The notes below the pieces were generated by a model that ran no database searches, was not told where the DNA came from, and saw nothing but the letters and a program-made list of their open reading frames with translations. A program made the translations under genes and the position numbers. This document shows, one piece after another, positions 1-37,086 of a stretch of DNA of 37,841 nucleotides. The stretch is taken from NCBI GenBank assembly GCA_000934665.2, contig JYFJ02003763.1, positions 1-37,841 on the forward strand. Reading direction: 5' to 3'. How positions within the stretch are numbered: the first letter of the stretch is position 1; each line of letters begins with the position of its first letter. The stretch comes from Catajapyx aquilonaris (Eukaryota).

Positions 1-1589
1 ACAACGGTGTAAGTCCGAGGTCTGTGCGACCTCGGGAAGTGGGAGATCTTTTCCATCCTATATCCTCCTCGGCGTGGGGCTTTATATATATTAGATTTTT
101 AAAATTCTATAGGGAACAGCAGGCAGGTACTCTTGGGACAAAATTAGAGAACATTTTCATCAGTTTCGTCTAAGAATCGATTCCTTTTTCTGCAGCTAGG
201 GACAGCCGCATTCGTTAGGATTCAATAGCTGCACATTTGGAGTCATTTACGTGGCACAAGTTTATTAGAATTGAAACATACAATACTGTATGTGAGCAGT
301 TGCACTATAGCAACTACCAGATCATAATAGGCCTAGGCTGCACTAGTATAAAGCATAAACAAGCCACAAGCCATTTTAAAAATTCAACTCAGTTATTGCT
401 TGCAAGGACATTTTAAACTCTCCTAATTGACAGGTTAACCAAATAACTTAATTGTGGTACAATAATTTAACATTTCAATTGATAAAATTATGTATATCGT
501 CGCTGGCAATCCAATACCTCGGATCTCACACTTTGGCCGATTTTCAGTTTTCCATGGTTATGCAGTAGTAGTTCACGTAGTCCTTATGCAATCTAGCTCC
601 AATATGGCCGCCCCATGCTGCAGGATAGCAAGAGGATAGGGAATTGGCAAGCGATTCGTTTTTGTTTTTTTCAATTGTTTTTTTTTTCACTGCATGTAGC
701 TCCTATGTGAATTAGCTCCAATATGGCGGAGAGACAATACCCTGTCTAGGTGGGGGAGGCACTCATGTAGGTGACCCTGGTCAATACAAGCCCCATCTGT
801 TGGAAAAACCTCATATTCCCTAGGCATCCCAAAAAAATTACAAATACGGTAAATAAATAAATAAATAGGGATTTTCTGTTGTGTGCCAGTACTTTAAGAA
901 ATAGTTATTTCCTTCTCCTGTAAAGTTGGGTTCATCGTAGATACGAGGTATTGGATTGCCAGCGACGATATTGTACCAAGGCAGAATTGTTGTATTAAGT
1001 TATATAAGGTAGTAATTTTTATGACAATCGCATTGTTTTCAGGAACTCCAAAGTTTGGCAAAAAAAACATAATTACACGCAAGTTCACTGCAGTTCAAGA
1101 AGAGTCATAGCACCGTAACTGCACCCACTTTATGTGGCATCCAAGCAGTGTTCTGTGAACTCTCCAGCCGATACAGGAAGGCCGTGAAGTACTGGAAAAT
1201 AATCGACACCATGAAGAAATTGATGCCAAAGTGTGGAAGCGAACCTCTCAATTAAAATCATATCAAAAGGCTGGATTCAGCCAATTAAAAGAAAATTTGC
1301 ATTTCATTTCTGTTTGATCTTGTGCCATCCATACTCTTTATTTCTCTGCTCTTTCTGGCCACCTACAGAGCCAATAATTAGTTTTTTCGAAGCCTGGGCT
1401 TGTTATGGATTCGGTGGAGGAAACGATTTCTGCACCGATAAAAGATGGAAGTCCAATTCTTCAGGTTTCTTTTTGATTCGTCCGCCATGTCCGCTGAGTG
1501 GACCTCCCACCTCACCTTGCCCTCGACTACAAAATAAGCCCGAGTCCTTTTCACCTTTGCCTCTTTTCAAGTGGCAAAATGAAGCTTTC

Positions 1590-2470
1590 TGACCCTTCAC
1601 CGATTGTGGAACGGTTCCATTTACACAAGTGGGACCAAAAGGTGGGGGAAACTGTGGCACAATATGTTGCAGAACTCCGGAGGTTGTCGGCCAATTGCGA
1701 ATATGGTAGGGACCGATTTGTGTGGGGTCTGCGAGATCAGGCCATACAGGTGCGTTTGTTGAGAGAAGCCAACCTGACCTTTAACAAGGCCATGGACATT
1801 GCTACTGCAGCAGAGGCAGCTGGGATGAATGTAAGGCAGTTGGGCTCACAGTCCACAATGGAGTCTGCTGAGGTACTATATCGCTCAAAAAGATAGAGAC
1901 GATTGGCATTTGATTCAAGTGCAAGTTGCACTTGAGTCAAATGCAAGTTGCACTTGAGTCAAATGCAAAATCGTCTCTATCTTTTTGGGCGATATAGTAC
2001 ATCAGATAAGAGGAATATGCCAGATGTCCAGAAGCCAGGAGTCTGGTGTCATCGTTGCGGCTCCACCAACCACCAAGGCAACACAGGTTGGGCCAAGGAG
2101 GTGATCTGCAAATTATATGACAAAAAGGGTCACATAGCCAAGGTCTGCAAGTCCAAAAAAAAAAAAAAAATGCTGGTAAGGAGCCCATAAAGAAGGCGGC
2201 AGACTATGGAAAAGCGACAAGCAAGTCAGTCCAACTGTTGGAAGAGGCAGTTAATACTGTCACTATTTTCAATGTGTATGCTGTCATGGATTACTCGTAC
2301 TTCAAGAAGAGGTGGTCGAATCGGGAATATGAGCTACGACCACTGGATTTCCAATTACGGACGTGGTCATGGCATCAGTTAGAGGTTGCAGCCTGTTGGA
2401 AGGTGGAAGTTGTCTACAAAAGACAGCAACATCATTCAACTCCCATTTATAATGGTGGCAAAATCCGGTG
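1590..2470 (+). mobile_element. Degenerate Gypsy/Ty3-type (K02A2.6-like) gag-protease relic
   Basis: Gag core PSPIVERFHLHKWDQKVGETVAQYVAELRRLSANCEYGRDRFVWGLRDQAIQVRLLREANLTFNKAMDIATAAEAA; decayed zinc knuckles CHRCGSTNH...CKLYDKKGHIAKVC in another frame; protease-tail-like LRTW...VEVVYKRQ. Frameshifted and interrupted by a MITE. Confidence 0.8.
1873..2000. mobile_element. Palindromic MITE, copy 1 (inside gag relic)
   Basis: GTACTATATCGCTCAAAAAGATAGAGACGAT...ATCGTCTCTATCTTTTTGGGCGATATAGTAC foldback with an internal 22-nt tandem duplication; GTAC at both ends (TA or GTAC target duplication). Confidence 0.85.
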
Positions 2471-3024: not shown

Positions 3025-6000
3025 TTAACCTCGTCCACGACCTTTGGTAAGAAATTTTTTTAGTAACATGAAATATCTAGTGATGATGATGATGATAATA
3101 CATACCTTTTCCTCCGCCGCCTTTGCCTTTTCCTCCGCCTTTGCCTTTTCCTTTGACTTCTTCTTCTTCGTCTTCATTTTCTTCACTTTCTTCATATCCT
3201 GCACGCTCAGGGACTATACGCAACGGAAAGATCATAATTAGTTTTATGCACTGCACACTGTGTAGTCTCATTACACTCACATTTGTACGTTTGTGTCACC
3301 CTCTTCCAAGTCTTGATTTGAGAGGTACGATCGAAAATTAAGACGGCGCCGTTATAGAAGATGGCTTCCGCTCCAGCGATGGTCTTAAATTGGAACGAAT
3401 CACTCCACCTCCACCTCTGTCCTCCTACAATCCAATTCAGAAACACCAGTGAATTTGTCGGTAGTCAGCTTAATTGAAATTTGTTTCCGTTTTCTTACCT
3501 GCACATGTCCACATTGGGCAGCAAGATCCGAATGTTTCGCCCTCTTCGACGCACTTTCTCTTCTTCTTCAGAGCTGGGCCTCGTTTGCATGGGAATAGCT
3601 GGCATGGCGGAACTCCGACAAACACTTGTTTGGTTGCGGATGGTACTGCAGATATGAATAATAAGAACGACAGTTATTCATAATGCAGGCGTAAGGAATA
3701 GACATAGATTCTAACTGACCATGGCAATTGTACGCGGGGCAACATTTCGAGGGGCTCTTTGTCTTGGTGCATGAAATGCCTTTGGGTGGAAGGGCACAGC
3801 TGACGTCTCGGCATGATTGGGTTTCAAATGTGACGTCAAACTTGGCAACTGACTTGCTGGTCGAACTTTTGGTCTTGGAAGCTATAAAGTAATAAATTAT
3901 ATTAAAATCCGGGGCTAAAAAGTACCAATATGCAGGGATTTTTAAATAAATAGTGATACCCTTGCTGGCCGCTGCTTGTGCTTCTTCCCACGTTGTAATA
4001 GATGACTCAGAGTCGTATCTGTACGTAATACCAATATATAGGACGTTCCTGGCTTCACCCATGTAGAAAACGAACGCTTCCTTCTGTTCCCACTTTTTAG
4101 CTGCAAACAGAGTATGAATCAAATTCATTCACAGATATTCAATTGATATTGTACCACCAATTAGGTATGATAACCCTTACATTTGCATTTATATCGAGGG
4201 CAGCAAAGGTTTTCCACGACTTCAGTAGCGCAACTCCATTTCTCTGGTGGTGCCTTGCATTCGATAATTTTGCATGGTGAAACTCCAACAGCTACTGTGG
4301 TTGTCGATTTTAATGCTGTAAGAACACATAAAATGTAGGATGGCAAAGAAGCACAACTTGTACAAATTGCGTTGATTATGTGTGGCCGCCAAACCTACCT
4401 TGGCAATGTTGTTTACCGCAGCATGATGCAATTTTACCCTCATCTACTGACTTACACGACAGCACTACTGGTGGTTTCCCGCAGATTGGTCTCCTACAAA
4501 TCAGCTCTGTTTGACAAAAATTTAATGTCAGTAGAAATGCAATTCTTCATACAATAATATTTTCACATTCAACTTACTCGTTATTGCTCTGATAGCTACG
4601 CTCCATTCGGTTATAGTGGCAGTGACTTGGTAGAAGAACACACCACCTTGGTAATACACAGCCCATTGTTTTTTGAACATAAAGCTGAAAGTGACGACGT
4701 TGTGCTCCCATTCTTCACCTGTAATACTGGTGAGTGAAACACCGCTTTGATGGACAGCATAGTGTTGGTGGGAATGTGAGCAGCTTACCATCGCATGTGT
4801 ATGTAGGACAAACTGCCTCGGGCATTATCTCCTCTTTGCAGTCCATGTCACTCGGAGGGCTCTTGCATTGTATCAATTTCCTAGGCATAACGGCGACGGC
4901 AATCTTCGCCATGGATGATGGAACTATAGAAGTAATTTAAAAAGTTGTGCAACAGAATGCAGTAAACATTACTAATTTTTTCTATACATACCATCGCAAG
5001 TCCATCGTGGACAACATTCCAGTTCCTCTTTGGTGTCAGTGCAGTCTTCTAAGCCAGTTGGTGGATCAGGACAAGAAACATCGTCACATTTCGTCGCTGA
5101 AATAATGAATCATATATCATTGTCATTATTATGTGCTGGTAATATGCGTTAACGACTTATGGTGATTTTTATACAGAAACTCCTGTTTGCTGCAGGATTA
5201 TGTACTCACACATGGCCTGTTTAACTGCTGCAGACCAAGACTTAATGCGGGAACTCCTGCTGAACTTGAACGCAACGCTCATGTACAGAACGTATGACTC
5301 TCCTCCCATTTCAATCATGTTGCCCTCGCTTTCCGCCCAAGCTCCCGCTGAAATTTCAAACGTCATAAAACTTGAAGGAAAACGAGATTAGGATATTCCT
5401 ACCTGTACATTGCCATCTTGAGCAGCAAGCATCTTTTAGATTGACTTTTTCGCACTTGTATGCCTTTGGAGGCTCACTGCATTCGATAAGGTCGCATGGC
5501 TCGACACCAACCTCGACTACTGCGAGCGAAGCTGAGGCTGCTCGTAAGAAGATGAAAATGGTGATGCTTAATTGTCATCACATTCCTCAGATAAGTTTAA
5601 ATCCAACTTACATGTGCAGATCCATTGTTTGCAGCAAGTATTGCTTTCTACAGCTCTGCAGTTTAGGCCTTGTGGTTGCGATGAGCACACGCATTGTGTT
5701 TCTTTGTGCCAAAAGAGTTGTCCTTGGTAGGATATTACCTTTTTAGATTCTATGTAAAGGACCTCAGCGTCTTCGGTTTCCCATCCACCACCTGAGGAAA
5801 TTAAGTTGATTAAACTAGTAACCTATGGACTACATAACATTTTGGTTTTTCTGGTAATTACCAACACAACTAAATCCGTCACAGCATGCTCCTTTCTTTG
5901 TTGACTTGGTACAGCTCATTCCTGCAGGAGGCTGTTTGCATTTTACCATTGCACAAGGGTCATCTATGTCCATAATTCGTTTGTTCTTTGGTGCTGTAAA

Positions 6001-6290
6001 AATGATTGACAGGTAAAATGTTAAATTTACTGCTGCATATTTTTGTCATGTGTAGATCGGCTTTCCTACCTTTGCAATTCCAGGTATCACAACAATCATC
6101 CCCCGTCTTTGGTACTTGAGTACAATCCAGGTCTTTTGGCTTTTCTCCGCAAACGATTGCATCACATGGATCGTCCGGTAGCCAAAACATTTCCCCTCCG
6201 AATACCATGGCCTTCTTCTTTTCGACATAAATTAGTTCCGCATCTTCTGTTTCCCAGCCACCACCTGGGAATTACGCCACGAAAAAATGC

Positions 6291-6358
<68 letters not shown>

Positions 6359-9300
6359 CTATGCAGCTAAACTTCGCACAGCAGGCTCCCTTCTTTTGCG
6401 ACATTGTGCAACTCATTGACTTAGGAGGATCTTTGCACTTAATCATTCCACATGGGTTCGCAACTTCTTGAATTCGAATACTTCGAGAAGCTATAGATAT
6501 ACCAAAGCGAAAATTTTTGTAGAGAAAAATAACCGACAATAATGCAAAAGTCACTACATACCTTGGCAATCCCAGGATGCACAACATGCTTTAGGTAATT
6601 TAACTTCCGAGCACTTCATATTTTCGGGTTTTTTCGGGCAAACGACATTTTCACATTCATCTGTTTCCATCCAATATACTTGTCCTTCATACACCATGGC
6701 AGCCTTCTTTTCCACGTAAATTAATTCTGCATCTTCCTGTTCCCAGCCACCACCTAGTTGGATAAATTACTAGGTCATGTTTAGTGTCACTATAAAAATG
6801 TCACTGTTGATATTAGTAACTTATTTAAAAAGGACATTACTTAGACAGCTCCATTTGCTACAACAGGCGCCCTTCGCTGTAGACATGGTGCAACTCAATG
6901 ACTTTGGAGGTTGTTTGCACTTAACCATTGCACATGGGTTTTCAATTTCTTGCACTCGAATAGATCTTGATACTGTAAACAATATTTTTTTTAACCTACA
7001 GGAAAAGTACTAAAGCTGAAGATACCATACCAGAGCAATCCCATGCAGCGCAGCAGGCCTTTTCTACTTTAACTTCCTTGCATTCCATATTTTTGGGTGC
7101 TGCAGGGCATACAATGTTTTCACATTCATCTTGGGGTAGCCAGTACACTTCCCCTTCATACATCATGGCTTTCTTGCTTTCGATATATATAAGCTCTCCG
7201 TCTTCTTGCTCCCATCCTCCATCTAGTATAGTTATTGTAATAATTTATTTCATGTTTCTATTGACACGAAATCCTAATTTGACGAGAGGTGAGACATATT
7301 TACCCATGCAGCTCCATCGGTTGCAGCAGGCTCCTTCGGCGGCGGCAATGGAACAGCTGAGTTTAGATGGAGGCGCCTTGCATTTAACCATCGTACAAGG
7401 ATCGACGATTTCGATGACTTTAATCGCCAACGAAGCTTTAAAGAAAAATAGGAAATAAATTAAAAATTAATTGATGCACCTTGCACTTGTGTACTTGTCC
7501 GGATGAATAACGTTAAAGAGCGGCACCTAGACCTGATAGACAACTGTAGTGAAATGACATGCTTTCTTTGTGGCCACGACCTTACCGATACACCACATGG
7601 CCTCCACAATTGACAATAGATGCATATATAAGCATACCTTGACAATTCCACAAACTGCAACATTCGCCCTCTTTGGTTACTTCTGTGCAATCCATTCCAG
7701 AAGGTTGGGGATCACATGTAACTGATTCGCACTCGTCTATCTCTTCATCCATAACCATAACAATTTTGTCTTCAGTGACTACAGCCTTTTCACCTCGAAT
7801 GTACACGTATTCTCCTTCACTCTTGTAGTGCTCCCATTCTTGGTCTGCAACAATTCATTGCTAGAATATACCTTCCGCTTATAATAACATCAGGGATACT
7901 CACTGTCGCATCGCCATTGTGGACAGCATGATCCCGACACAACCTGTTTAGTGCATTTTTGTTCTTCTGGCGGATCGTGGCATTTCACTACCTCACATGG
8001 ATTTTTCACCTTGGCGATCTCGACCCTCTTGACCACTGAAGAATCATAATCATATAATTAGTACAACAATGTATGCCATTATCACAGCTTTGATCTCTTA
8101 CCAACACAGTCGTAGAAAGGACAGCACGATCCTTCAACTTGTGTTGTCGTGCACTCCAGTCCTTCCACATCAGGTGGTGGGGTACAGATGACACTGGCAC
8201 AAGGGTCCATTATCACAACCTCTTTCTTTTCTGTAAAGAAAAATGCTCTGTATATTGTGACTAGTAGAGAAAATAACCAACCGACCCTTGCACTTGAAGA
8301 TGGGACAACACTCTCCAGGTATTTTCTCTTCCATACATTCCACTTCAGAAGGTGGTTTCAAACACTGAACATTGTCGCAGTCGTTGACATCCAACTTCCA
8401 CTCAAAATCCGCCATAGCAACTGGAACATACCACATGAGTAACTTGAACCTAATCAATTATGAAACAAAAACTTACCATTGCATTTGTATTCAGGACAAC
8501 ACTTGCCCTCCTCTATGGTTGTGGAACATTCCGAGGACTTGTCAGGCGGGATATGCCAGCACTTGACAGACGCACAACGTTCTTCCGCTGTCGTGGTCGA
8601 CGATGACTGAATTCCTGGTGTACAAGGAACCTATGTTAGGCACACCTCTTTTCTCACTTGTAGATAATAACAGATACTAACGGGTACACTTGTAAAAGGG
8701 ACAACATTTTCCAGGTTCGACCAACTGAGTGCATTCATAATCATCTCTTTCTGGTGGTTTCAAGCAATCGACGAATTCACATTCATCGTCTTCGGTATCC
8801 TCTCCCAGCTTGTCTGCAACAATATCTCATGAATATTGAGAGAGTGATATTTGATGTTAACAATGCTCACCTTTGCACTTATAAACAGGGCAGCATTCAC
8901 CGGGAACAACTTCTTCTGAGCATACCATGGATTCGTCGTAGAGTGGTTTTTCGCAGACGACATTCGCACAACGCTCAGCCTCCAGTAGAGCCTCTGTAGT
9001 TTAGAACAATAATATTTGGTACATTGACAACCAAGGAAGGGAGTATAACAATACCTTCGCATTCGTATATAGGGCAGCATTTTCCTTCTTCGAAGACCTT
9101 CTCGCAGACAATATCTGGTGGGGGCGTCCAGCAATTGATGTCAATGCAACGACTACCCTTGACACTCCATTTTACTTCCTCCATGATCTCTGTTGAACAG
9201 TGACAGGTACCGATAATTTAGTTAAAAGTATTCTAACTTCATGACAGAGGACTACTAACCAACGCATTTGTAGATTGGACAACACTTGTCGGGTTCGTGA

Positions 9301-12300
9301 ATTTCTGTGCATTCCAGATCATCTTCCTCAGGTGGTTTCAAACACTGTACATCGGCGCATTCGTCGATTTCTAAATCCAACTTGTCTGGTACGGAGAAAA
9401 ATTATTTAATTATATAGGACAAGCATTGCACAACCGAACAACATACCTTGGCATGTAAATTGTGCGCAGCATTCCCCTTCTACAATGTCAAGTATTTCAC
9501 AAAGTAGATTATCGTCTGTCGGTGGTAGATCACACTCAACATATTCGCAAGGATCACGCTCTGATGGAAAGAAAAAAATGCATGCCGGAAGATCATATTT
9601 GGAGAGTTATCTTCATAATACTTACCACGACATTTATAAATTGTGCAGCACCTCCCTTGTTGTTCTATACACTCCAATTCGTCATGCCTTGCTGGAATGG
9701 TGCATGTTACATACTTGCAGTACTCTTCCTCTATCATTATTACTCCGGCTCTTACACAATCTACATAAATTGGACAACAGTTGTTGTCTTGTGGTTCGTG
9801 ATCACAGAATATTCCATCTGGTAGCGGCAAACACTGTCTCAGATCACATTTTTCTATAATCACATCCTCGATCACCTTGACCGCTATGAATGCAAAAATG
9901 AGCTTAGTATCAGTAAAACATTTTAAAAAAAAATGTTAATGTTATGCTAACCTCGGCAGTTCCAGTCGGGGCAACACTTTCCTTCAACACGTACTTCTTC
10001 ACACTCATCTCCTTCCGGTGCTGCTTTGCATCTCACATAATCACATGGACCAACTTCCACTTCCATTGTTTTGGCCTCTGTTGGTTTAGAAGTAATGAAA
10101 TTAGTGCAGGAATATTAAAGAGACGAAAAGCGATCAGTTACCATGACAAGTCCAAGTTGGACAGCAGTTATCTTCCAAGACTTCACTTTCGCAGTGGAGT
10201 TCTTCAGGTGGAGACAAGCACTCTTGCAGCATACATTGTGTGTGCTCCACATCGTACAGTTCAATAGCTGCGAATGTGTCAATAAAACATGAAATTTTTT
10301 TCTCTCTAGCCATAAACAATTGACTAATTACCTAGGCAGAAGTAGTCCCTGCAGCACCACTGTGGTAGCTTTTGTGACGTACACCTGAACTCCTCAGGTG
10401 GTTCATTACATATTGCTAAATCGCATGTTTCTACCGCAACATCTACCATGATTTCCTCTAAAAAAGCAATGCTCTTCGTTAGTGCTTACTAAACATTCAT
10501 TTGACTACCTCATTATTTTGTCACCTCGGCAGGTAAATGTTGGGCAACAGTCGTCGTCCACCGTTTCTTCCTCACAAATAAGATGACCTGGAGGAGGGCT
10601 GCATTTGGTATACTGGCACTCTTCCGCAAGCACAGCTTCCAATCTGAGATCTGAAAGTTATGCAGATGTATGACGAGGTCAAGTACAAGTATTTAAAAAG
10701 TTATTACGTTGGCAGGTGTATTTAGGGCAGCATCTGTCAGGTGCGATTTCCTTTGAGCAATCCTCGATGTTAGGTGGAGGTGTACATATAACATTAACGC
10801 ATTGGTCGTGATGGAATTCAAGAATTTCTCTCTCTGAAATGTGGGAAAATAGCATGATTTTTAGTTCAAAATATCATATGTGTCTAACTCTGCAGATTAA
10901 TTTTTTTGGGACAAAACATGGCAGTATATCTGAATAGAGATTCCCCTATACCTTCACAGTAAATATAAGGACAGCATTGGCCTTCAACGAATGTTGTTGT
11001 GCACTGAAGATGTTCTGGGGGAGCCTCACATTGGACGAGTGCACATTGATCAACTTCTATAGGTCGATACTCCGTTTCTGTAATAATAGATCACACACGT
11101 AAGGGATGCAGACATAACAAATTCTACAAACATACCTTCGCATGTCCACATTGGACAGCAGCAATTTGGAACAGGTGTTGGAACGCAATTCTTGTCCTTT
11201 GGAGGGTCAATGCATTGCACATATTTGCAGATTGGAGCCTGGACGTATATGATTACAGGTTCTGTAAATGACAAAAAAAGACGGAGTAAAAATCATGTAT
11301 GGTCATAAGAGTTATGCTTTTTTACCTTCACAAGTCCAGACTGGACAGCACTGGCCTTCAATATGTTCTTTTGTGCATCGTAGACGTTCTTCCGGAGGGA
11401 AGCAGACTATTCCATCACACTTGTCGATCTCTACAGGCTCCACTCTGAGTTCTGGAAATAATAATGTTGTCATTTTGTCACCATGTAACACCCTTTAGGC
11501 TACTTATGCTAACTTGTGCAATTCCATTTGGGACAGCACAATCCCTCGATGGTTATTTCCTTACAGTCTTGATCTTCAGGCGGAAACCCACATGTCGTAT
11601 CAATGCAAATATCTCGTACTATGTAATCAGTGAACTCCTCTGAAATAAGACATTAGTAATTATTTAGTATAAGAATAGTGCCTCCAAGATCTGGCACTTA
11701 CCTTGACAGGACCAGTCTGGACAGCAATAACCTTTGTCAATCTTTTTACAGATGTAATTCGGTGATGGGTTAAAGCATTCTTCCAATTCACACTTATCTA
11801 TTGCTACATCATTGATCTGCTTAACTGTAAAAAAAAATTAACGGATGAATATTTAGTGTGTGAAACACTTTAAATGGCTCGCGAATAGCTATATTGCCTA
11901 TCAGGTTACTTCAAATAGTTGAAATCTATTTGAATGTAACCCAATTTATGTTGATAGGCACTCTACAACGATTCTCGAGGTAGGTCCACTGACCCTGGCA
12001 TTCCCAAGCTGGACAACACGGGTCAGTACCATTCGTACTAGTACAGACGTATTCTGGGTTGGGCTCGTTGCATTCTACCATGTCACAGAGGCTAATAGGC
12101 ACATCTGTCGCTTTTTCCACTAAAAGGGGGGTTAAAATAATATATGAACAAGTGATTAAATGTAGAGATGTAAAATTAAGTAGATAATATGAAACGTACA
12201 ATGGCATACGAACTCCGGGCAGCATTGATCTTCAACGTCATCCCTCTCGCAGTTGTCTATGTTATCAGGCTCTTTACAACGGACCATGGAACACATTTCT

Positions 12301-15300
12301 AATATTCCGGCTACATTTTGGGTTGCTGTAAGTCAAAGTGGTCGCCAATTTTAATTTAATGTGTATAGTTATGGGAAGTCAATTTAAATATTTATCTTAA
12401 ATTGTACTCCAGTATACGCTCAATGGGAACTGGAAATTGAATAGTTTTGTCTTCGAAAATAGCGAAGAAAACTACTGTTCATCTTACTCTGGCATGTCCA
12501 CACGGGGCAGCATTTCTCTGGATCGTCTTCAGGTGTGCATTCTAAGGTTGCAGGCGGATCTATACATTCAGTCAAGTCGCAATCTTCGAGCAAAACTGTC
12601 GTCAGTTTTGTTTCTGCAAACCAAAACGCATTTTTAATTAGTGGTTGATTATTCTTTAGGTTGACAAAGTGAGAACATGGATCATTCAGTAAAAATGCCT
12701 ACATTCTCAGAAAAAATATTAGTTGTATTTCCGATCCACGCAAGTTTGACCAGTAACTTCTGAATACCTCCGTATACACTGCACAAAACTGATATGATTT
12801 CACACTTTTTATCAATAATAGTTTAGACACAACATTACCTTGACAGTCCCACTCCGGGCAGCAGTCTGGTTCATCAGCAACCTTGCACATGTATTGTTCC
12901 GATGGCTGTAAACACTTTTGTAGTTGGCATTCTTCAATCTCCACGGTGTAATTCTTTGGTCCTGTAAATAGTAAAACATATATACTAATCCGATTTGTAA
13001 CTAGTCCTGTCAGTATGACACCAAGTATTTCAAGTTGATACATACTCTCACATGTCCATTTGGTGCAGCAGTCTCCTCCTTCAGGAACTGCTTCACATCT
13101 GAGCGATTCAGGAGAAGGAAGGCAGGAAGTGGTGAAACACTCGTCTCCCAATGCTGTAAATCAGAGCATTGTATATGTCAGGGCATGTCAGTTACTAGGA
13201 AATAAAATGTCTTACCATTTATGGATAAGGCCATCACTCGTTTCTCTGTGGAATGTATTTTGTTATTAGATGAATGTATGCTATGATTTTTTAGGGATAT
13301 GTGCAGAGTAGTTTGTAACACTTTTAGAACTAGCAATTGAAGATATTTAGTCATGGACACCTAGGCTGCGGTATGATAATCAAGCCAGTTGCTAAAGCAA
13401 TATATTACAGTTTCTAAAGAAAATACTTGGAAACACGTGATCCAATAAGACATAACGTCAAACTATCACATCCCGAGGTCATTTCAATGTGACTCGGATC
13501 GTTATACATTCATGCTTTCAAATTATTAGGTGCTGTTACAATTGAAATATTTATCTCACTCAGAGGTATTTTGCTTGTCGAACAATGTACAATGAGAAGA
13601 AAAATATTGGAGGGACATAATTGACGTTGTCCTTAGAAAACCATTACCCAAGGGCAAAACAGAAAAATCTTTCTTCCTCCAAATTTTGTCTTTTTTGCAT
13701 TTTGATAACGCTGAATTTCTGCTTTTCAGAGATACTTCTTGATTAAATTATGTCTACCGCTTGAGAAAATCATTTTTCAAATGTGTAAACACCATTTTGA
13801 CGTGCCATTCCCACTTGTGACATATATGGATATAAATCATTTTTATGAAACATGTTGAATCTATATCTGTGCCTTAGAAAAGCTCGCATTACAATTAATT
13901 TATCTTTTGATTCTCTCTCTCAGCTACAGGAGCTACAGGACATACTCTGCACATGTCTCATCTCCTGATTTTGACTGATAATGTGTTTATTATTTTAAAA
14001 AAGTCCTTACCTCGTTTTACAGGTTTCGGTGGAGCCGCTGAAAAATAACAGGATAATTAATTATAATTTCATCATTAAATTTATTGTCATTGACGCTGAA
14101 ATTCAGCTTACCTGGTGCTGGAAAAAAATGAACAATTCTGATAAGTGATTTTATCCCAACATTGCACCTGATATAATAACGGGTGATGCATCAAACTCAC
14201 CTACTGCGACCACTTCGACTTCTTCAATTTCTAAATCCAATTTGTCTTGGAATGCAACGTCTTGTGTGTGAGTCACATCCACTTGAACATGCTCCACGTT
14301 AACTGCAGGTATATGTTCTTCCCAGGCATCGAAATTCATTCTTTCGAGGGTGTTTGCCTTTTTGACCTTGGTGGTTTTGGTTTTGATGACGTCCATCGTG
14401 AAGCTTCCGTCAACTGCTCCCGACATCGCCGACATCCCGGACATCCCGGACATCCCGGACATCCCGGACGCATGCATCCCGGACATCCCGGCCATTCCCG
14501 CCATTCCTGCCATTCCCGCCATTCCTGCCATTCCCATTCCCATCCGTTGGCTGCTTCTTACTTGGTGGGTATTAACTACTTGATGCTGCTGTGCTTCCTG
14601 TTCCCCAGAATCTTTGTGGACATAGGCCATACTCATGCTGGATCTGTATGCCTCTCCAGGTCTCCGTTCCATTTGTGTACCGCTGCCGCTGGCACCCATA
14701 ACCGAAGCGTAGGGCATCTCAACTTCACCGAAGCCGCCTCCTTTTCCTGCAAATGTCTGTAAAAGTTCTCCTCCAGGTCCATAGCCACGGCCTAAGTCAT
14801 GAGAATTAAGTAATTAATTATTATTATTAATTATATTTGAATATACAAAATATTTACCTGCAGCACTGTTTGACGATCCTCTGCGGGTTTTCTCTGGATT
14901 AAAAAAAAAATCAGAATTGTGTAAAGCAGTAACTTTAAATTTGTTAAATTATTACTCACCGCCAGTTAATAAAGACGTTCTCTCTTCTGCAAGTTACATG
15001 AAATAATAAATTTGTTATGAGACTGTTTCATTGTTGCATTATTACAAGTGTGTTACTGCCAGCTCAAATTTTATGCCGGATCGTTAAAGTACCACATTTG
15101 CATTGTGGCTGTGAGAGGTGGGAAATTCAATAAGCTTTAGGTTCATTGTAATCTCTAATATATCTCTGAGGATCGATGTGCCATTTCATAATTTTTAGTG
15201 GAAGTTGTTGCTAATTATATCAGTTAAATATGTCCCGTTTTTGCCGTTTTTGTCCGTTTTTGCATGGCCACATAATTATGTCATCGATGGTGCCTTCTCT

Positions 15301-16107
15301 TGTAACCTCCGGGACAATTACGGGATGGTTCACTTTTTTTATAATGGAAACAGACTCTTGCTGCCTTAGTTATCCTTATCCTCGGATAATGCGTCATACG
15401 AATTTCACTTTCTGCTTTACCACTGTGTGTTGGGGGGAGGGGGCTCTCGTGTAACTGAGAAGGATCTTAGAAGAGATAACATCTGATACCCTTATGCAAC
15501 AGCTTAATATGAATGGTCCATATTGTATGGCACTATCACTTTAAAATTCTATTTCACTGAATATTTCCCCTTCGTTAATAATTCCTCGAATTATAATGGC
15601 AAATTCAATGCTTTAAAATTATAGATCGAATATTAATCTGGTTTTGAGACTCCCCCTGTTCTTCATATATTTCTTACGGTATATTATAACATTTAAGCCC
15701 GACTTAAGCTACGAGTTTCCCTTCTCTTCAAACGGACCCACCAATTGGTCGTTACTCAAATGGTCTAACCGGCATGAAACTTAGCTCATGTACAGCATTT
15801 GAACAAACTCAACCTTTCGCACTGACGTCCATATTCCAGGCTCGTACACCTAGTTCAGGTCCTTCTCCTAGAATCAAAATAAACACTTGACTTACAACAC
15901 TGCCTCAGTATAAAGTTGAGTTGATATTTCACACTGACCTTCCTCTTCCTGAGCACCCTTTCCACCTTTTTTTTGTCCCTTTGGAGAACCTTTCTGTGGT
16001 CCTCCTTTGCGTTTGTCTGCATAAGCATCTTGAAGGAACAGGCAGAAAACGAGCACAAGACACAGGGTATAGGTGGCGTTGAGCTTCTTCTTCTTCCAGC
16101 CCAACAT
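3025..16107 (-). CDS. Gene A: giant secreted cysteine-rich modular protein (54 exons, ~2,427 aa, 42 Cys modules); family not recognised, VWC-C-half-like repeats
   Basis: Exons read manually, all AG/GT-bounded and phase 1, summing to 7284 nt with no internal stop: 16107-15939, 14986-14960, 14893-14858, 14791-14201, 14117-14112, 14037-14011, 13245-13216, 13153-13046, 12961-12839, 12613-12488, 12325-12200, 12119-11994, 11824-11702, 11639-11514, 11451-11326, 11261-11136, 11077-10952, 10833-10708, 10650-10525, 10457-10332, 10267-10142, 10077-9952, 9883-9626, 9560-9447, 9385-9260, 9189-9055, 8993-8871, 8813-8682, 8614-8477, 8420-8286, 8230-8102, 8035-7904, 7844-7638, 7435-7304, 7222-7031, 6972-6841, 6753-6562, 6490-6359, 6264-6070, 5993-5862, 5791-5612, 5537-5403, 5347-5210, 5096-4992, 4923-4789, 4718-4578, 4506-4399, 4315-4181, 4100-3960, 3881-3720, 3645-3499, 3424-3281, 3213-3106, 3041-3025 (GRGRG-stop). 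Signal peptide MLGWKKKKLNATYTLCLVLVFCLFLQDAYA|D. Confidence 0.88.
6291..6356. repeat. (AAT)22 microsatellite in a gene A intron
   Basis: Perfect trinucleotide run directly adjoining the donor GT at 6358-6357. Confidence 0.97.
14201..14791 (-). CDS. Gene A exon 4: Cys-free low-complexity domain with (GMA)n(GMS)n repeat
   Basis: 591 nt open exon between ttag| and |gtgagt: GRGYGPGGELLQTFAGKGGGFGEVEMPY...MGMGMAGMAGMAGMAGMAGMSGMHASGMSGMSGMSGMSAMSG...DKLDLEIEEVEVVAV; overlaps ORF 14151..14717. Confidence 0.85.
14420..14545. repeat. Coding 9-bp tandem repeat (Gly-Met-Ser / Gly-Met-Ala)
   Basis: (gacatcccg)n and (gccattccy)n on +, encoding GMS/GMA on - within gene A exon 4. Confidence 0.9.
15939..16107 (-). 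CDS. Gene A exon 1: signal peptide + Gly/Lys-rich N-terminal segment
   Basis: Basic n-region, hydrophobic core LCLVLVFCLFL, A-Y-A cleavage motif, then DKRKGGPQKGSPKGQKKGGKGAQEEE; donor G|GTCAGT, phase 1. Confidence 0.85.
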
Positions 16108-17783: not shown

Positions 17784-17883
<100 letters not shown>

Positions 17884-20234: not shown

Positions 20235-23131
20235 TCATTTTACTAGTCCTGACAAGAGGGCATCCATGCTATGTCCAGCAGTGTTTCCGTCCCTATTTGC
20301 CTTTCCTGCACTTATTATTTTTGAGAATGCATTCATTAGAGACTTTGGAGCTCCCGATTGTTGGAGGCCGGCTGCGTGCGGATCATCATCCGGTTCGTCT
20401 GACCCAAACCCTTCTTTGCCGTATTTCAAAAGCCCGTCAGTTGGCCCAAAGCCCTTACCTAATTAAAAACGTTATATATTAGTGTTATCACAATTATTAC
20501 CAAGAAATATTGTGCAGTAGTTCTTACCTCCTGAGCTGAATGACGATCCACTTTTTTTTGTTCCTGTTTTGAAGGTATTAAGATAAAAAAATACAGTGCA
20601 ATACGTAAGTAACCCGATTGAAACCAGAGCGTTAATTTCAATTTCAAAATGAGGTGGAATTTATGGTTTCAAAAATGACATCAAAGGATATAAGCACATA
20701 ACTTGAATCGAAAATAGTCAATGCCTAATAAATGAAAACTTTGTCAAACGTAATTATTTGATCCTCATTACATCTTTTCAACATTGTACAGTTGTGGAAA
20801 TGAATGGAGAAGTACAAGTATCGCCTGCTGGCTGAGTTTTTCCGTTACATGAAGCAGCTAAATGTAAAGGAAAACTCCGCCAGGAGGCGATACTTGTACT
20901 TCTCCATTCATTTCCACAACTGTATGGCCGCAAGTGTACCGCGCAATTTTATGGGTCAAAAATAATTCAAACTGTAGAATGAAGGTAGTATGTGGTCCAG
21001 GCCTTAAAATGTGAAGAAGACAGATATGAAAAGAGTCACTCCTTCATTATTTTTTAACTGTGACACTCCACTCAAAAAACAAGTTTGGCTCTAAAAATCG
21101 GGCAAAAAATCCTGAATCCGACGGTGCAATCCGTTTTTCGCTACGCGGAACGGTAATCCCAGGGCGAGGTGTCAAAGTGTGTCGTCTGCTAATGAGCGGC
21201 GCCGCCACGCGGGGAACAGGGGAACTGGAGAGCTACACCGCTCTGGGATTGGCCAGTTCTCAAGGTCCCGAGGGCGTCGCTGGCAGACGGGCAGCTTCTA
21301 GCGCACTATTTGCATTTCCCCACTTTGACCCCTCGCCCTGGGATTACCGTTCCGCGTAGCGAAAAACGGATTGGACCGTCGGATTCAGGATTTTTTGCCC
21401 GACTTTTAGAGACAAACTTGTTTTTTGAGTGGAGTGTCCCTTTAAGGATTTGAGTGTGGAAAAAATTATACGGTATAACAGATATTCCGAAACATCATTA
21501 AGTTAACACAGTTATTCTCAATAAAAACTCAGTGCTGGAGTTACCTACAAGACTGGTTTCACTATGTTTGCCATACCACCTAACTTTAGAGACCAAGTCC
21601 AAACTGGGTCCTACGCGAGACTTACACCGGGTATAACAACGAACCACTGTTGACGGAAAGACTTTCATATCGGGAGACCGAGTGTGGCAGGGCCGCAGGG
21701 GTGTGGGCACGCTGTACCAATCTATCCCATGACTTAACTTTTCTTTCCGGCGGATACACGCCTATCTTTCAGCAGATACAAGCCTATAGGAAAGTAGGTA
21801 AAAGTGCGGGATCTCCTGATATGAAAACGTAACCCTTCACATGTCGCCACCAATGATTTTTCATTCCGATTGCCCCGTAGCATCATGTGGTACAGTTGCG
21901 GTCGAACAATTATGTATACTTTTCAGAGATGGTCATTAAATTGGTAACTACATACCATTTCATGCATATTGATCGTATTGTACATTACTCACCGGTAGCC
22001 GAATTTGTTCTTTCATCTGTGGTTCATGAAACAGAAGACACGGTATGATCAAGTACTGTACACGTCATATTATCTACTGCAGGGGTTCGGGAAATTAAGT
22101 ACTATATCGCCCAAAAAGATAGAACCGATTTTGCATTTGACTCAAGTGCAACTTGCACTTGAATCAAATGCCAAATCGTCTCTATCTTTTTGAGCGATAT
22201 AGTACATGACCGGTCCAACGAGGGGTTGTGGCTGACAAAATCCAGTATAACCAACATAGAATGGCGGATCTCGCCTCTTGGGCTTCCCTACTATTGGATT
22301 AGTCAGTCAAAAGTCCAACATAATGTTGTGAGAAAATTGAAATGTGGTAGGAGGAAAGTCGACAAAATCGGACCCCCAATTGGTTTTTCCAGTATAACTT
22401 CCTAAATGTTAAAGTTCCACTTAATTGCTCGATGTCAAAAGTTAAAAGTGGCTATAACAAAAATCCACGTAAATATTCCAAGTTAATGGCATTTTAAAAT
22501 TTAGTAAAAGTCTTTCGCACACTTTCTCCTCGCTTCCCCCCCGGAATTTGGGGGCTTTCCTCTACTCATAGGTACCTCGTCAGACCGACCATAATTATGT
22601 TTATGCCAGTGAAGACAAAATAGCATTAGTCCTATGTCACAGCTTTGTCACTGACATGCACACGATTTCTTCACAAGGTCTCATCAGTTGTCTTCTCAAC
22701 TTTTATGTCTAATTGAAGTACTTACAATACTGTGGCATAGGTGAGCATATTCACTGGCAAGAAGCAATAGAGCAGAGTATAACATTTTTGGGGCAGTTCT
22801 AATTGAGAAGAATCGTAACCTTTGATACGAGCTTTCATTGACCATGCCCGAGCTTCCAGTACTGCTTCACCATCTGAAAAGTATAAAAGATCTTTTCAGA
22901 TTAACTGCACCTTTTTACTTACCACGATTCTTTCATTTCTTTCATGAAGTCAATGTAAACTATGGAAATACTGTAGCCGATGCTAGATTCCAGAGACACG
23001 ATTTGTCACCCTTTGCGATTCGCACCCTGAGGCGGATCATCTTCTTCTGCATACGCATACTGAAGTAGAAGACAGGACACGAGCACAAAACGCAGGGTGT
23101 AACTTGGCTTCAGCTCCTTGCACCCCCACAT
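20235..23131 (-). CDS. Gene C: short secreted paralogue (129 aa) matching only exons 1-4 of gene A
   Basis: Exons 23131-23026 (MWGCKELKPSYTLRFVLVSCLLLQYAYAEEDDPPQ; donor G|GTGCGA is the weakest link), 22016-21993 (DERTNSAT vs A EERTSLLT), 20563-20528 (36 nt, GTKKSGSSFSSG vs A 36 nt EKTRRGSSNSAA), 20458-20235 (GKGFGPTDGLLKYGKEGFG... vs A GRGYGPGGELLQTFAGKGGGFG; ends LLSGLVK-stop). 390 nt in frame; AATAAA downstream. Confidence 0.75.
20789..20922. mobile_element. Tc1/mariner-like MITE (134 bp hairpin), gene C intron 2
   Basis: TA|CAGTTGTGGAAATGAATGGAGAAGTACAAGTATCGCCT...AGGCGATACTTGTACTTCTCCATTCATTTCCACAACTG|TA; 38-bp perfect TIR plus TA duplication. Confidence 0.9.
21058..21441. mobile_element. 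Kolobok-like MITE, gene C intron 2
   Basis: TTAA at 21054-21057 and 21442-21445; ~120-bp TIRs (GACACTCCACTCAAAAAACAAGTTTG...CCCAGGGCGAGG.GTCAAAGTG); right end reads TTAA|AGGGACAC on the minus strand. Confidence 0.82.
21663..21827. mobile_element. Probable decayed small TIR element
   Basis: TTTCATATCGGGAGA-CCG ... CGGGATCTCCTGATATGAAA inverted pair; no clear target duplication. Confidence 0.35.
22099..22205. mobile_element. Palindromic MITE, copy 2 (same family as 1873-2000, opposite orientation), in gene C intron 1
   Basis: Near-identical reverse complement of 1873-2000 without the 22-nt duplication; GTAC at both ends. Confidence 0.85.
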
Positions 23132-34100: not shown

Positions 34101-37086
34101 TTGTCCTGGTATATGCACTTCTGTACACAAAAGATGTGCCGCTGGTCGATCACATTTAAACAGAGAGCATCGGTCAATAGCCACTGCATTCATTTGTATT
34201 ACTGTAACGAGAACGGAATGCCATCGCCATTTTAACATCTGAAAATGTATCACTATGAGGAATCTGTATTGATGGTACCTTCACAGACCCATGTTGGACA
34301 GCAGCTGCTCTCTGATTTCTTTGAATAACAGTTCTTCTCAGATGGGGGTGTTAAGCATTGCACATATTCGCAGACATCAGCGTCAACTCTCAGAATGATT
34401 CTTTCTATTAAACATCAATGCTTAGTGATTCAGTATGACATCAGACTGATAATTTGGTACACCAATTCTCACATCTCAAAATAATTAAATGATAATTATG
34501 ATACATAACCAAGTTAAAGTCTTGTTGCATAAAATATAGCAGGTACATGATATTTTGGAAAGGCAAATAAAGTTGGTGCAGTGTGAATAAAACCAATTAC
34601 TGTGAAACTTTTATGGATTGTAAATACCTTGGCAAGTCCAGAGTGGGCAGCACTGGCCTGATAACTGTTCTTGAGTACATTCCAAATTAGAGGGAGGGGG
34701 CAAGCATTCAATGAGATTGCAGGTACGTATTTCAACTGATTTCATGTGAGGTTCTGTAAAATAAATTCTTTGCTTGTTACATTTTCATATATCTGTAAGC
34801 ATGCAAGGTAATAAAATTGTGATTCACCAAAAGTGAGGTTCACTCTTAAAAAGACAGGTAAAAAATACCTTGGCAATTCCATACTGGACAACATTGTCCT
34901 GGAAGTCCTATGCTGTTGCATTCTTGATCAGGAGGCGGGCGTTTACATACTGTATCACCACAAACATCCCTAGGAACCAGATCCATTTGTGTCTCTGTCA
35001 ATGACATATTTATTACAGGTTGTTGTTATAAAAGGGTTGCAATATAAATAATATACTGCTGTGCTATAAAATGATTTGACATCATACCAAAAACCCCACA
35101 TATTTTGGGCAATGTCATAATTAAAATTAATTTGCACTTTTTATATAACTTAATTAAACCTTCAGTTTAGTTGACATTCAAGGTATATACACGATAGTAA
35201 TGCATACTTTGGCAAGTCCAAACCGGGCAGCAGAGACCAGGATGTTCAACCTTTTCACATGTATAATCACTTTGAGGATTTACGCATGTCACATAGGCAC
35301 AATTTGCGATGATGACAGGAACAGTTTTCTTCTCTAAAATGAAACACAAAATTGGTGATAATTACAAATGCGAAGGTAATGCATGTTTTAAATACCTTGG
35401 CATTCCCATGCAGCACAGCATTGACTAGGTTTCTTGTTGCAGATATAATCTGGATTTGGTGGCTGGCATTTCCACAATTCACATTCACTTATTGCGACGT
35501 CTTTTACAATTGTACCTTTCGAAACATGTAAACGTGTATGAGAACAGTTCTCAACAAAAACTATTTGCACATTAAATGGTACCTTTGCATGTATATTCTG
35601 GGCAGCATTTTCCCTGAAGGTCACGCCGTTTACAGTTTTCAACATTTGGAGGCAACGTGCATTCAACCATGTCACACACTTGTAACGTTACAAGCACGTC
35701 ATCGGTTCCTGGAATATTTGGATTAATTACGTTTTGTTATAATACAGAATATCTGATAGTAACAGGCAGACAGGGTTTGTACTGCACAGCCTACTGTACT
35801 ATTGCAGCCAAACAGATGAAGACATTCCAACATGAGGGACTCTACATATTCGCTGGAAAGTCTTTAACAGTAATGTTTGTTTGTTTGATTGATTTTTTTT
35901 GTAATACCCGTGATAGGGCCAGGGGCTCTCTTAGAGGGGCGATTCCCAAGGGAGGGCGCTCTTAAGTAGTCATTTCTGACCCTCTTAAATACCAGACCTT
36001 TTCTCCTGGCCCTGGAGAGAGAAGGGAGTGCAAGTCTGTCCGGGCATGTCGGGTGAAAAGCGGAAAAAGACCCGACCAAGCGAAGGTGACGGGGACGAGA
36101 TTTGAACCCCGGACCTCCCGCTTGGCTGGCCAGTAGCATAGCCACTAGACCACTATGCCCCCCATAGGCCCCATTTCAACATTAATATGTAGTAACAGAC
36201 ATCATAATCTACACCTGCCTACACTATGGAAAAGTATGCTGAATATGATAGTAAATGTTCAGTTCTATAGTAAAGATATGCTCCATTACGTGTTAACCAC
36301 GCACCAACATAGACAGAATCGTTTGCCCTGACACCATTCTCTCTCGCATCACTAACAATCTTTAACTTTGCATAAACTCTGTAGTTTACTTTCACCCCAC
36401 CAAGCGGAACTAGATATTATCTAATGAGTCCTACTTTGGCAGTTCCACATTGGACAACACCGGCCAGGAAGCATTATTTGGTGGCACTGAAGATGTGAAG
36501 GTGGGTCCAGGCAAGTACTCGCATCACAGGATTCTCTCACGGTATCTGTAGTCTTTACCTCTGTTGATAATTTTTGGTTAATACATACATTGTTAAAATT
36601 TTTTGGAGGCGACTCCAGTCAATTAAATAAATGCAGGTAACATGCAAGAAAAATAATACTCATCCGACACTTGCGCATATGTGGGCCTATTACCTTCGCA
36701 AGAATAAATAGGGCAGCATCTCCCTTCTGATCTTGTCGTCGTGCAGGTGTACATGGAAGACGGTTCTAGGCATTTGGTTATGTCACATTCATTTACATTC
36801 GCTCCTATTTGATTCGTTTCTGAAATTATTGGTTTTAGATTTAGGTTTATAAATCTTAAAATGAACTAATATAATGTTTATAACATACTTTTGCAATGCC
36901 ACGTAGCACAACATGCTCCGGGCATAAAGTTCGGCTGGCATACATTAATTTCTGGAGGATTGATGCACTGCGAGCTGGCGCATTCGTCTATCTCAACTGT
37001 AAAATCATTAATATTTAATCATTATTAAGTTTTGCATTTTTCTATTCGAGTTTTCTTACGAGTGACAGATGCTTCGATGCTCGGAC
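25149..37086 (-). CDS. Gene B (5'-partial): paralogue of gene A, 38 Cys modules, 43 visible exons, ~1,986 aa visible
   Basis: Phase-1 exons: 37086-37060, 36996-36889, 36819-36694, 36560-36435, 35708-35583, 35515-35396, 35333-35208, 34994-34869, 34753-34628, 34404-34279, 34201-34076, 33989-33864, 33786-33661, 33596-33471, 33383-33258, 33200-33075, 33004-32750, 32675-32571, 32359-32057 (GC donor), 31991-31806, 31747-31616, 31557-31366, 31292-31161, 30914-30720, 30658-30527, 30461-30270, 30185-30054, 29988-29800, 29355-29224, 29164-28976, 28918-28781, 28719-28582, 28457-28356, 28295-28161, 28103-27972, 27910-27800, 26773-26639, 26568-26419, 26335-26207, 25921-25772, 25704-25564, 25506-25423, 25204-25149 (GDSGRGRGRGMQLPLMIG-stop). 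Position-matched exons share motifs with gene A (EEIMVDVA, ERDPC, GVPPCxLFPCK, RWxWSDxFxFKTxAG). No signal-peptide exon within the window. Confidence 0.87.
26838..27731. mobile_element. ~0.9-kb non-autonomous DNA element in a gene B intron
   Basis: ~80-bp imperfect inverted repeats 26838-26917 / 27653-27731 (TGACCCTTG.GT.GTC.GATCAT...GGTTTAATTAC.TCTCA.AAGAATA.CATTTGCGCGGT); internal direct repeat AAATTGGGAGGTAATTT; the matching intron of gene A is only 83 nt. Contains an N at 27637. Confidence 0.75.
35876..36163 (-). mobile_element. Full-length tRNA-derived SINE in a gene B intron (head resembles tRNA-Gly GCC)
   Basis: GGGGCATAGTGGTCTAGTGGCTATGCTACTGGCCAGCCAAGCGGGAGGTCCGGGGTTCAAATCTCG: A box TGGTCTAGTGG, B box GGTTCAAATC, ~200-nt body, A/(CAAA)n tail. 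Confidence 0.82.

Follow-up and report, generated by a model that had tools for sequence, protein, structure and literature searches.

The propeptide of von Willebrand factor ends at a furin/convertase site, placed at the propeptide boundary of a secreted multidomain protein, and furin-type convertases also cut HIV-1 Env gp160 at R-E-K-R, where the P1′ residue is Ala. A site of this kind can be brought under the control of splicing: exon 6B of human ApoER2 (7B in mouse) is an alternatively spliced exon of 13 residues that contains a furin site, and its inclusion is reported to lead to the furin-dependent release of a soluble fragment (PMC7410921). As convertase sites at pro-region boundaries, even splice-controlled ones like that of ApoER2, are already known, the general principle gains little from the locus described here. 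More unusual is the gene family itself, two tandem genes with about 39 six-Cys modules each.

What does the layout of these genes look like? The window, the whole stretch of DNA that was analysed, comprises 37,841 nt of Catajapyx aquilonaris, and all features described below lie on its minus strand. In our gene model, gene B extends from an ATG at 16107 to about 3200, with gene A, its tandem paralogue, upstream. Gene B is predicted to begin with a signal-peptide-like exon, followed by an orphan region that bears a Gly/Met repeat and by 39 six-Cys modules; the joined N-terminal model is open in frame, with 0 stops. As modelled, the product would be secreted and some 2,000 residues long, or longer. 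Exon 1 (15939..16107; ATG at 16107-16105; donor after 15939, phase 1, score 9.0) encodes a Met, a Lys run, a hydrophobic stretch of 14 residues and a small-residue end, by eye resembling a signal peptide, followed by a Lys/Gly-rich tail. Exon 2 (14201..14746; acceptor 8.2, donor after 14201 8.3) encodes the orphan N-terminal region with its repeat tract and an acidic tail, within an open frame of 220 codons (14151-14813). A start of this exon at 14791 was dropped in favour of 14746, its acceptor scoring -1.9 versus 8.2; the motif discussed below is unaffected by this choice. An in-frame 9-nt tandem repeat (14418..14535; Tandem Repeats Finder periods 9 and 18) encodes the Met-Ser-Gly / Met-Ala-Gly tract, and it is for this tract of roughly 40 residues only that the term Gly/Met-rich, applied to the entire N-terminal region in the preliminary description, is apt; over the whole region, Gly amounts to about 14% and Met to 8-9.5%. 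The first module exon (13046..13153, 108 nt, scores 9.7 / 6.5) places four linker residues before its first Cys, and the other 38 modules follow within 3499..13046. In the alignment of the modules six Cys are invariant, spaced as C-x4-C-x8-C-x8-CC-x4-C, and all delimited exons are of phase 1-1. Introns of gene B are short, with a median of 76 nt, 31 of 71 measuring 70 nt or less and the longest 1026 nt.

Between exon 2 and the first module, two very short exons are predicted. The splice scores given here (acceptor / donor) come from position weight matrices trained on the module exons of the window, with 73 donors for 77 modules and acceptors picked by iteration; module exons score 8.6 / 8.1 at the median and 5.3 / 4.3 at the 10th percentile. 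As controls we used 1717 open AG..GT candidates of 6-60 nt, with a length that is a multiple of 3, taken from control sequence totalling 47,870 nt. Mini-exon 1 (14011..14037, 27 nt, phase 1-1, scores 10.6 / 8.0) is bordered by ...ttatttttcag and gtaagg and encodes APPKPVKR plus a carried G; mini-exon 2 (13216..13245, 30 nt, phase 1-1, scores 4.8 / 10.1), bordered by ...cattccacag and gtaaga, completes the Glu codon GAG and continues with KRVMALSIN and a carried G. Both exons have canonical AG/GT borders and, as the preliminary description had it, their join reads K-R-E-K-R↓V in the sequence, with mini-exon 1 contributing K-R at P5-P4 and the opening base of the codon for P3, and mini-exon 2 the remainder of that codon, K-R at P2-P1 and Val at P1′. 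None of the 1717 controls matches both scores of either mini-exon, while the summed scores are reached by one control for mini-exon 1 and by six for mini-exon 2. The acceptor of mini-exon 2 falls short of the score that marks the 10th percentile among the modules; alternative in-phase acceptors for its donor score at most 3.4, and the donor of mini-exon 1 has a single usable in-phase acceptor. Across 15938-13154, 6 of 250 open phase 1-1 candidates pass an acceptor score of at least 4.8 together with a donor score of at least 4.3, and the six combine, in frame, into a single coherent gene model. Judging from these signals, mini-exons 1 and 2 are most likely real, constitutive exons of phase 1-1, and that both are used and joined directly to each other has, in our estimate, somewhat better than even chances.

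Three further short candidates lie in the same part of the gene: two potential mini-exons of phase 1-1, ERTSLLTG (14960..14986, 27 nt, scores 7.7 / 4.5) and KTRRGSSNSAA (14858..14893, 36 nt, 10.7 / 7.1), and the in-frame 6-nt micro-exon CACCAG (14112..14117), with scores of 13.5 / 9.5 the best of the region and reached by none of the 1717 controls. The latter would insert Pro-Ala upstream of the hinge and leave the motif untouched. In gene A, the first module exon (36889..36996) likewise has 108 nt and four linker residues, and 64 nt upstream of it lies a candidate counterpart of mini-exon 2 (37060..37086, 27 nt, PSIEASVT, scores 5.6 / 4.3). It is the only one of 42 candidates in 37819-36997 to pass the thresholds, but it is weak, as 17 of the 1717 controls do as well. 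The encoded peptide contains no basic residue, the gene A exon upstream of it falls beyond the end of the window at 37841, and a DNA alignment of the mini-exon regions of the two genes gave nothing usable. The intron following mini-exon 2 measures 62 nt, typical for gene B. The similar introns of 62 and 64 nt in the two paralogues were dropped as support; short introns being normal in gene B, all that their likeness tells us is that mini-exon 2 matches the exon spacing of the array.

Under the splice model, the furin consensus R-X-K/R-R, with Arg at P1 and P4 and Lys or Arg at P2, is indeed present as K-R-E-K-R. It stands just ahead of the Cys array, with the first Cys of module 1 at +13 from the putative cut, in line with the earlier estimate of about 12 residues. 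The motif was picked out post hoc. R-X-[KR]-R occurs once in the N-terminal model, dependent on the predicted junction 14011->13245, and not at all in 3,265 module-exon residues. With 20,000 shuffles of the N-terminal region, at least one such motif arises in 3.4-6.4% and one within the last 34 residues in 0.5-0.8%, so that its occurrence goes modestly beyond chance expectation. Its uniqueness, however, says little, since at the Arg content of the modules (2.5-3.0%) only 0.11-0.14 further motifs are expected and finding none is what this composition predicts. The Lys residues at P5 and P8 and the prolines at P7, P9 and P10 would suit an exposed basic hinge.

These features suggest a scenario in which mini-exons 1 and 2 jointly encode a short Pro/Lys/Arg-rich hinge that would join the orphan, repeat-bearing N-terminal region (220-256 residues) to the array of 39 six-Cys modules. 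K-R-E-K-R would be the sole R-X-[KR]-R of the modelled protein, and in the mechanism that we prefer a furin-type proprotein convertase would cut after its second Arg in the late secretory pathway, thereby separating the Cys array from what lies N-terminal to it. From its sequence, K-R-E-K-R↓V is plausible as an ordinary candidate processing site. That the joined mini-exons form such a convertase-cleaved hinge is a tentative reading, possible rather than probable, and actual cutting of the site has perhaps half the chances that we give to the joining itself.

The flanks of the motif bear on the prospect that the mini-exons are real and joined, yet encode an unprocessed part of a charged, proline-rich hinge, with the N-terminal region staying on the array. 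Of three flank rules, which derive from mammalian furin and short peptides (PMC3713968, PMC3545927), two speak against the candidate site, which has Val at P1′, where hydrophobic aliphatic residues are reported as unfavourable, and Glu at P3, where Glu and Gln are; its Val at P6 is acceptable, the rule being directed against Pro. Glu at P3 is among the residues described, for human furin, to 'largely inactivate' multibasic peptides (PMC3545927), and a hydrophobic aliphatic P1′ residue is reported as incompatible in the other study, where a peptide with a Ser-to-Leu exchange at P1′ stayed uncut (PMC3713968). The former source further holds that cleavage is not predictable from a multibasic motif alone (PMC3545927). 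Linkers elsewhere in gene B have similar basic runs beside Val or Ile (V-K-R-V, K-N-K-R-I), and the gene A counterpart is devoid of basic residues, both of which would fit a hinge that is simply charged. Against this, the single R-X-[KR]-R of the model falls exactly at the boundary between the two types of region, which the shuffles rarely reproduce, and additional basic residues occupy P5 and P8. We consider an uncut hinge unlikely, although a serious contender. Somewhat doubtful, too, is a main mRNA in which the motif is never put together, with at least one mini-exon unused (likelier 13245-13216), or an unrecognised exon lying between them, and at most one K-R pair encoded. The case for both exons is built from splice-signal scores throughout, the acceptor of mini-exon 2 is weak and the gene A mini-exon does no better than the 17 controls; moreover, all exons being of phase 1-1, a direct join of 14201 to 13153, or the inclusion of one mini-exon alone, would also stay in frame. 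The control counts argue against it for each mini-exon, as does the predicted 765-nt intron between them (13246..14010): by splice scores, it holds no comparable candidate for the additional exon that the preliminary description had held against its own reading, the best of 43 open phase 1-1 candidates reaching only 2.9 / 5.2. Omitting both mini-exons would also leave an intron of 1,047 nt, longer than any of the 71 measured.

A different division of the locus, with one gene for the N-terminal exons and another for the Cys array, or with a separate first exon for the array, appears improbable to us. With two genes, the frame of exon 2 would read through the donor at 14201, staying open for 50 nt to a stop at 14151, with an AATAAA about 65 nt beyond the stop; but this donor is strong, and in phase 1 it fits everything downstream, while at such base composition a chance AATAAA is estimated for every 1-2 kb or so. 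With its own first exon, the array would start at an ATG in the open frame 13360-13178, which runs into mini-exon 2, and only ...E-K-R-V... would be left near the N-terminus; the frame is open upstream to 13360, and its Met leads into a stretch that is partly hydrophobic but broken by Lys and Gln, by eye a poor signal peptide. Still further from likely is a regulated skipping of either mini-exon that would turn convertase processing on or off by tissue or stage. Both mini-exons are short and symmetric (phase 1-1), and ApoER2 exon 6B/7B sets a precedent (PMC7410921). Yet this symmetry is common to all delimited exons of gene B, and the possibility of in-frame skipping is for that reason no sign of a switch; the splice signals of mini-exon 1 are in part above the module median, as expected of a constitutive exon. 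The preliminary claim that the site is lost when either exon is skipped holds for the four-residue consensus but not for a dibasic site, which would survive either skip because both mini-exons encode a K-R pair. We see no reason to think that the site is regulated by splicing.

Searches for relatives of the N-terminal exon led back to its repeat. A word-indexed search of proteins of 344-2000 aa gave 3 matches, all to the low-complexity tract, and a full HMMER scan against 1.84 billion representatives found 29 at E <= 0.001, none of them reaching E <= 1e-10; the best stretch of each starts between residues 68 and 88, in the Gly/Met tract or adjacent to it. A metagenome scan yielded 23 loci with 34-75% identity within query residues 10-122, 21 of them within 70-122, and no usable match was obtained in the ESM Atlas. 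Among proteins of up to 2000 aa, neither a two-module exon nor a profile of the 9 long modules found a relative, the latter among 2527 candidates; as the modelled protein is about that size or longer, relatives of full length may have escaped detection. Pfam gave nothing relevant on open frames and modules, with 0 of 70 modules (61 short and 9 long) matching; PDB searches with both module profiles and a wide VIA-align search, the latter at Z >= 2, gave no match. A literature search for a Gly/Met-rich, Cys-repeat protein showed nothing recognisably the same among the matches listed.

The structural and language-model leads for the modules all point to the VWC domain (ESM Atlas 0.77). The VWC consensus is a ten-Cys pattern with C-x-x-C-x-C and CC-x-x-C, and it is its second half that the modules resemble in their six-Cys spacing and ...CC-x4-C ending; in contrast to VWC, they have six rather than ten Cys, and the long modules are without the N-terminal ones. 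With structure models of pLDDT 77.5 and 89.1, Foldseek returned as first match of the long module the vWC domain of CCN3 (5nb8, non-significant at E 1.2) and for the short module only two matches, the MUC2 C-terminal domains (7qcu) and VWF C4 (6fwn), non-significant at E 8-10. The VWC profile itself (PF00093) detected none of the 61 short or the 9 long modules at E <= 10, and none of 11 longer open frames at E <= 1. The two tandem genes may be members of a family of giant secreted proteins not described so far, for whose modules the searches run gave no relative in Pfam, in the PDB or by sequence; taken jointly with a pro-region that is released at a splice-assembled convertase site and an exon choice that sets its processing, however, this reading is very improbable.

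If the site is used, it is where the mature form of this very large and uncharacterised cysteine-repeat protein begins, and the region with the Gly/Met repeat is either removed as a pro-region or released as a product of its own; this would help in annotating and expressing the gene. How, then, does this candidate compare with the described sites? It is identical to the HIV-1 Env gp160 site in R-E-K-R at P4-P1, including Glu at P3, but has Val at P1′ in place of Ala, and the proteins are unrelated; the cutting of gp160 shows that Glu at P3 is no absolute bar, and nothing more. With von Willebrand factor, to which no homology of the gene B protein is detectable, it shares the placement of R-X-K/R-R between an N-terminal region and a Cys-rich array, and possibly a signal peptide, which in our case is suggested by eye from exon 1. 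Unlike the folded D-type propeptide, however, the N-terminal region of gene B is orphan and partly of low complexity, and the site has the Glu at P3 and the Val at P1′ that are reported as unfavourable in the furin studies (PMC3545927, PMC3713968). In ApoER2 (PMC7410921), the whole site resides in one cassette exon, with inclusion and cleavage shown experimentally, whereas in gene B it is split over two predicted exons, each of which keeps a K-R pair. Common to both are very short in-frame exons that contribute a furin consensus, such that the choice of exons could decide on processing.

The two tandem paralogous genes, A and B, both lie on the minus strand, and a pattern search of the window finds 77 six-Cys modules in them, 38 in gene A (36982 to 25776) and 39 in gene B (13139 to 3503); the arrays span 25772-36996 and 3499-13153, with about 38-39 module copies each. 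An in-phase GT donor follows 73 of the 77 modules within a few codons, and every delimited module exon is phase 1-1, the usual length being 126 or 132 nt. Across the 61 short modules aligned, the six Cys are invariant and one Pro is near-invariant (C-x4-C-x8-C-x8-CC-x4-C), while nine longer modules carry an extra, Cys-free, W/Y-rich N-terminal half. As the arrays are collinear, B4, B5, B7 and B8 pairing with A4, A5, A7 and A8 and, at the far end, B36, B37 and B39 with A35, A36 and A38, the first gene A module in the window is module 1, and the 5' end of this gene lies beyond 37841. Upstream of the gene B array are an ATG exon with a signal-peptide-like start (exon 1, 16107-15939, minus) and exon 2 (14746-14201, minus), the best acceptor/donor pair inside a 220-codon open frame. 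An in-frame 9-nt tandem repeat in exon 2 (14418-14535; about 10 + 5 copies, 76-87% matches) encodes a Gly/Met tract and is probably length-variable.

What do the two predicted mini-exons ahead of the gene B array encode? Mini-exon 1 (14037-14011, minus, 27 nt) has on its 5' side a long pyrimidine tract with a final cag and on its 3' side gtaagg, its phase-1 reading being APPKPVKR; mini-exon 2 (13245-13216, minus, 30 nt) is preceded by cattccacag, followed by gtaaga, and reads KRVMALSIN in phase 1. In this phase one base is carried in and one carried out, and the junction codon GAG (Glu) combines the carried-out G of mini-exon 1 with the opening AG of mini-exon 2. The preliminary description had placed a spliced furin motif here, and its coordinates, frame and motif are correct, because the coordinate-based join of the gene B exons is free of stops and encodes K-R-E-K-R followed by Val. 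In the same join, the first Cys of the module-1 exon (13153-13046) is at +13.

Splice signals were scored with donor and acceptor weight matrices trained on the module exons, with both mini-exons outside the training set. Module-exon medians are 8.1 (donor) and 8.6 (acceptor), with 10th percentiles of 4.3 and 5.3, though the exons behind the acceptor thresholds are also those on which this matrix was iteratively fitted; the mini-exons score 10.6 / 8.0 and 4.8 / 10.1 (acceptor / donor). Thresholds of acceptor >=4.8, a cut-off placed at mini-exon 2's own score, and donor >=4.3 are reached by 6 of the 250 open AG..GT candidates of phase 1-1 in the stretch from exon 1 to module 1: two upstream candidate mini-exons (14986-14960 and 14893-14858, both minus), exon 2, the hexamer CACCAG (14117-14112) and mini-exons 1 and 2. 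Among 1717 control candidates of 6-60 nt from 47,870 nt of opposite strands and intergenic DNA, 23 pass (0.48 per kb); none matches both scores of mini-exon 1 and none both of mini-exon 2, and the summed score is matched by one and six controls, respectively. An exon separating the two halves of the motif, which the preliminary description had considered, finds no support in the sequence of the 765-nt intron, where the best of 43 candidates scored reaches only 2.9 / 5.2. On balance, we slightly favor the view that both predicted mini-exons are used and joined. CACCAG itself (14112-14117, minus, 6 nt), lying downstream of exon 2 and upstream of mini-exon 1 and in frame with both, has the top acceptor and donor scores of the whole 5' region (13.5 / 9.5, matched by 0/1717 controls); it could represent a micro-exon, or else a recursive-splice-like site of near-zero length.

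In gene A, one of 42 candidates passes the thresholds in the last 820 nt (37086-37060, minus, 27 nt, phase 1-1, PSIEASVT). It lies 64 nt before the module-1 exon, mirrored by the 30-nt exon of gene B at 62 nt. The module-1 exon is short in both genes (108 nt, with 4 linker residues versus about 10 elsewhere), and a preceding mini-exon would restore the usual linker length. As support for mini-exon 2 this counterpart is weak, because its scores are equalled by 17 of the 1717 controls, introns are usually about this short (median 76 nt; <=70 nt in 31 of 71) and no DNA alignment of the two mini-exon regions was obtained. PSIEASVT contains no basic residue.

For exon 2, word-indexed search, HMMER, metagenome contigs and the ESM Atlas gave no relatives beyond the low-complexity tract; the HMMER scan of 1.84 billion representatives returned 29 matches, none at E <= 1e-10, and all database matches are explained by the 14418-14535 repeat. 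Module searches covering proteins up to 2000 residues found no relatives, none of the 61 + 9 modules and none of the longer open frames has a Pfam match, PDB sequence profile searches with modules gave no relevant match, and a VIA-align search with a module gave none. AlphaFold models reach a pLDDT of 77.5 (long module) and 89.1 (short module). The sole leads are VWC domains, all non-significant: an ESM Atlas lead (0.77), CCN3 vWC as the first Foldseek match of the long module (E 1.2) and just two Foldseek matches of the short one, MUC2 C-terminal domains and VWF C4 (E 8-10). The modules are at most VWC-like, and not members of the VWC family. The last module of both paralogs (3503-3604 in B, 25776-25880 in A, minus) conserves a Lys/Arg run in its second Cys loop, K-K-K-R-K and K-R-K-R, respectively, which might serve as a basic binding loop or as a further dibasic site.

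Elsewhere, the intergenic DNA holds an inverted repeat (21062-21179 and 21321-21438; 118 nt, 97% complementary, spacer 141 nt) resembling a foldback or MITE-type element, and a perfect (ATC)21 followed directly by (AGT)12 (17784-17883). A perfect (AAT)22 microsatellite occupies 6291-6357 in a gene B intron. Downstream of gene B, open frames that carry a gag-like zinc-knuckle motif (CCHC; 1498-2190, plus strand) are probably a retroelement remnant; other open frames at about 35860-36180, in the 727-nt intron that separates modules 3 and 4 of gene A, are of the kind seen in tRNA-derived SINE-like inserts. Inside gene A, at about 27600-27700, there is at least one N (X in the translation of 27529-27828).

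The N-terminal model has no R-X-[KR]-R other than K-R-E-K-R, and the motif is absent from 3,265 module-exon residues, where just 0.11-0.14 would be expected with Arg at 2.5-3.0%. In 20,000 shuffles of the N-terminal region, at least one R-X-[KR]-R arose in 3.4-6.4% of trials; the share with such a motif in the boundary zone was 0.5-0.8%. The quality of the motif as a furin site is mixed, with Lys at P5 and P8 and a Pro-rich hinge, and with Glu at P3 and Val at P1'. In a study of human furin, Glu at P3 is among the residues that 'largely inactivated' multibasic peptides, and Ser is the most frequent P1' residue (PMC3545927); another paper describes a hydrophobic aliphatic P1' as incompatible, a P1' Leu peptide staying uncut (PMC3713968).

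We tentatively propose that the predicted hinge, the Pro/Lys/Arg-rich stretch of both mini-exons, would be assembled and then cut by a furin-type convertase, which would release the N-terminal orphan region, 220-256 residues long. That the hinge is not assembled in the main mRNA is almost as likely, and that it is assembled and left uncut only slightly less so; that N-terminal region and array are separate genes, or that the array uses an internal exon as its first, is improbable. Least probable of all is a regulated splice switch. Its principle has a precedent in ApoER2 exon 6B/7B, where 13 residues carry a splice-controlled furin site (PMC7410921). However, of the proposal that skipping either mini-exon removes the site, only the loss of the four-residue consensus holds: the predicted products read E-K-R-V without mini-exon 1 and P-V-K-R-A without mini-exon 2, keeping a dibasic pair either way. 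Moreover, frame-preserving skipping is generic in gene B because every delimited exon is phase 1-1, and the splice signals of mini-exon 1 are those of a strong exon.

As a candidate processing site, K-R-E-K-R with its following Val was read correctly in the preliminary description, is well predicted and belongs to a familiar type. The HIV-1 Env site is R-E-K-R, the same tetrapeptide as in the gene B hinge, and Glu at P3 is therefore no absolute bar to cleavage.
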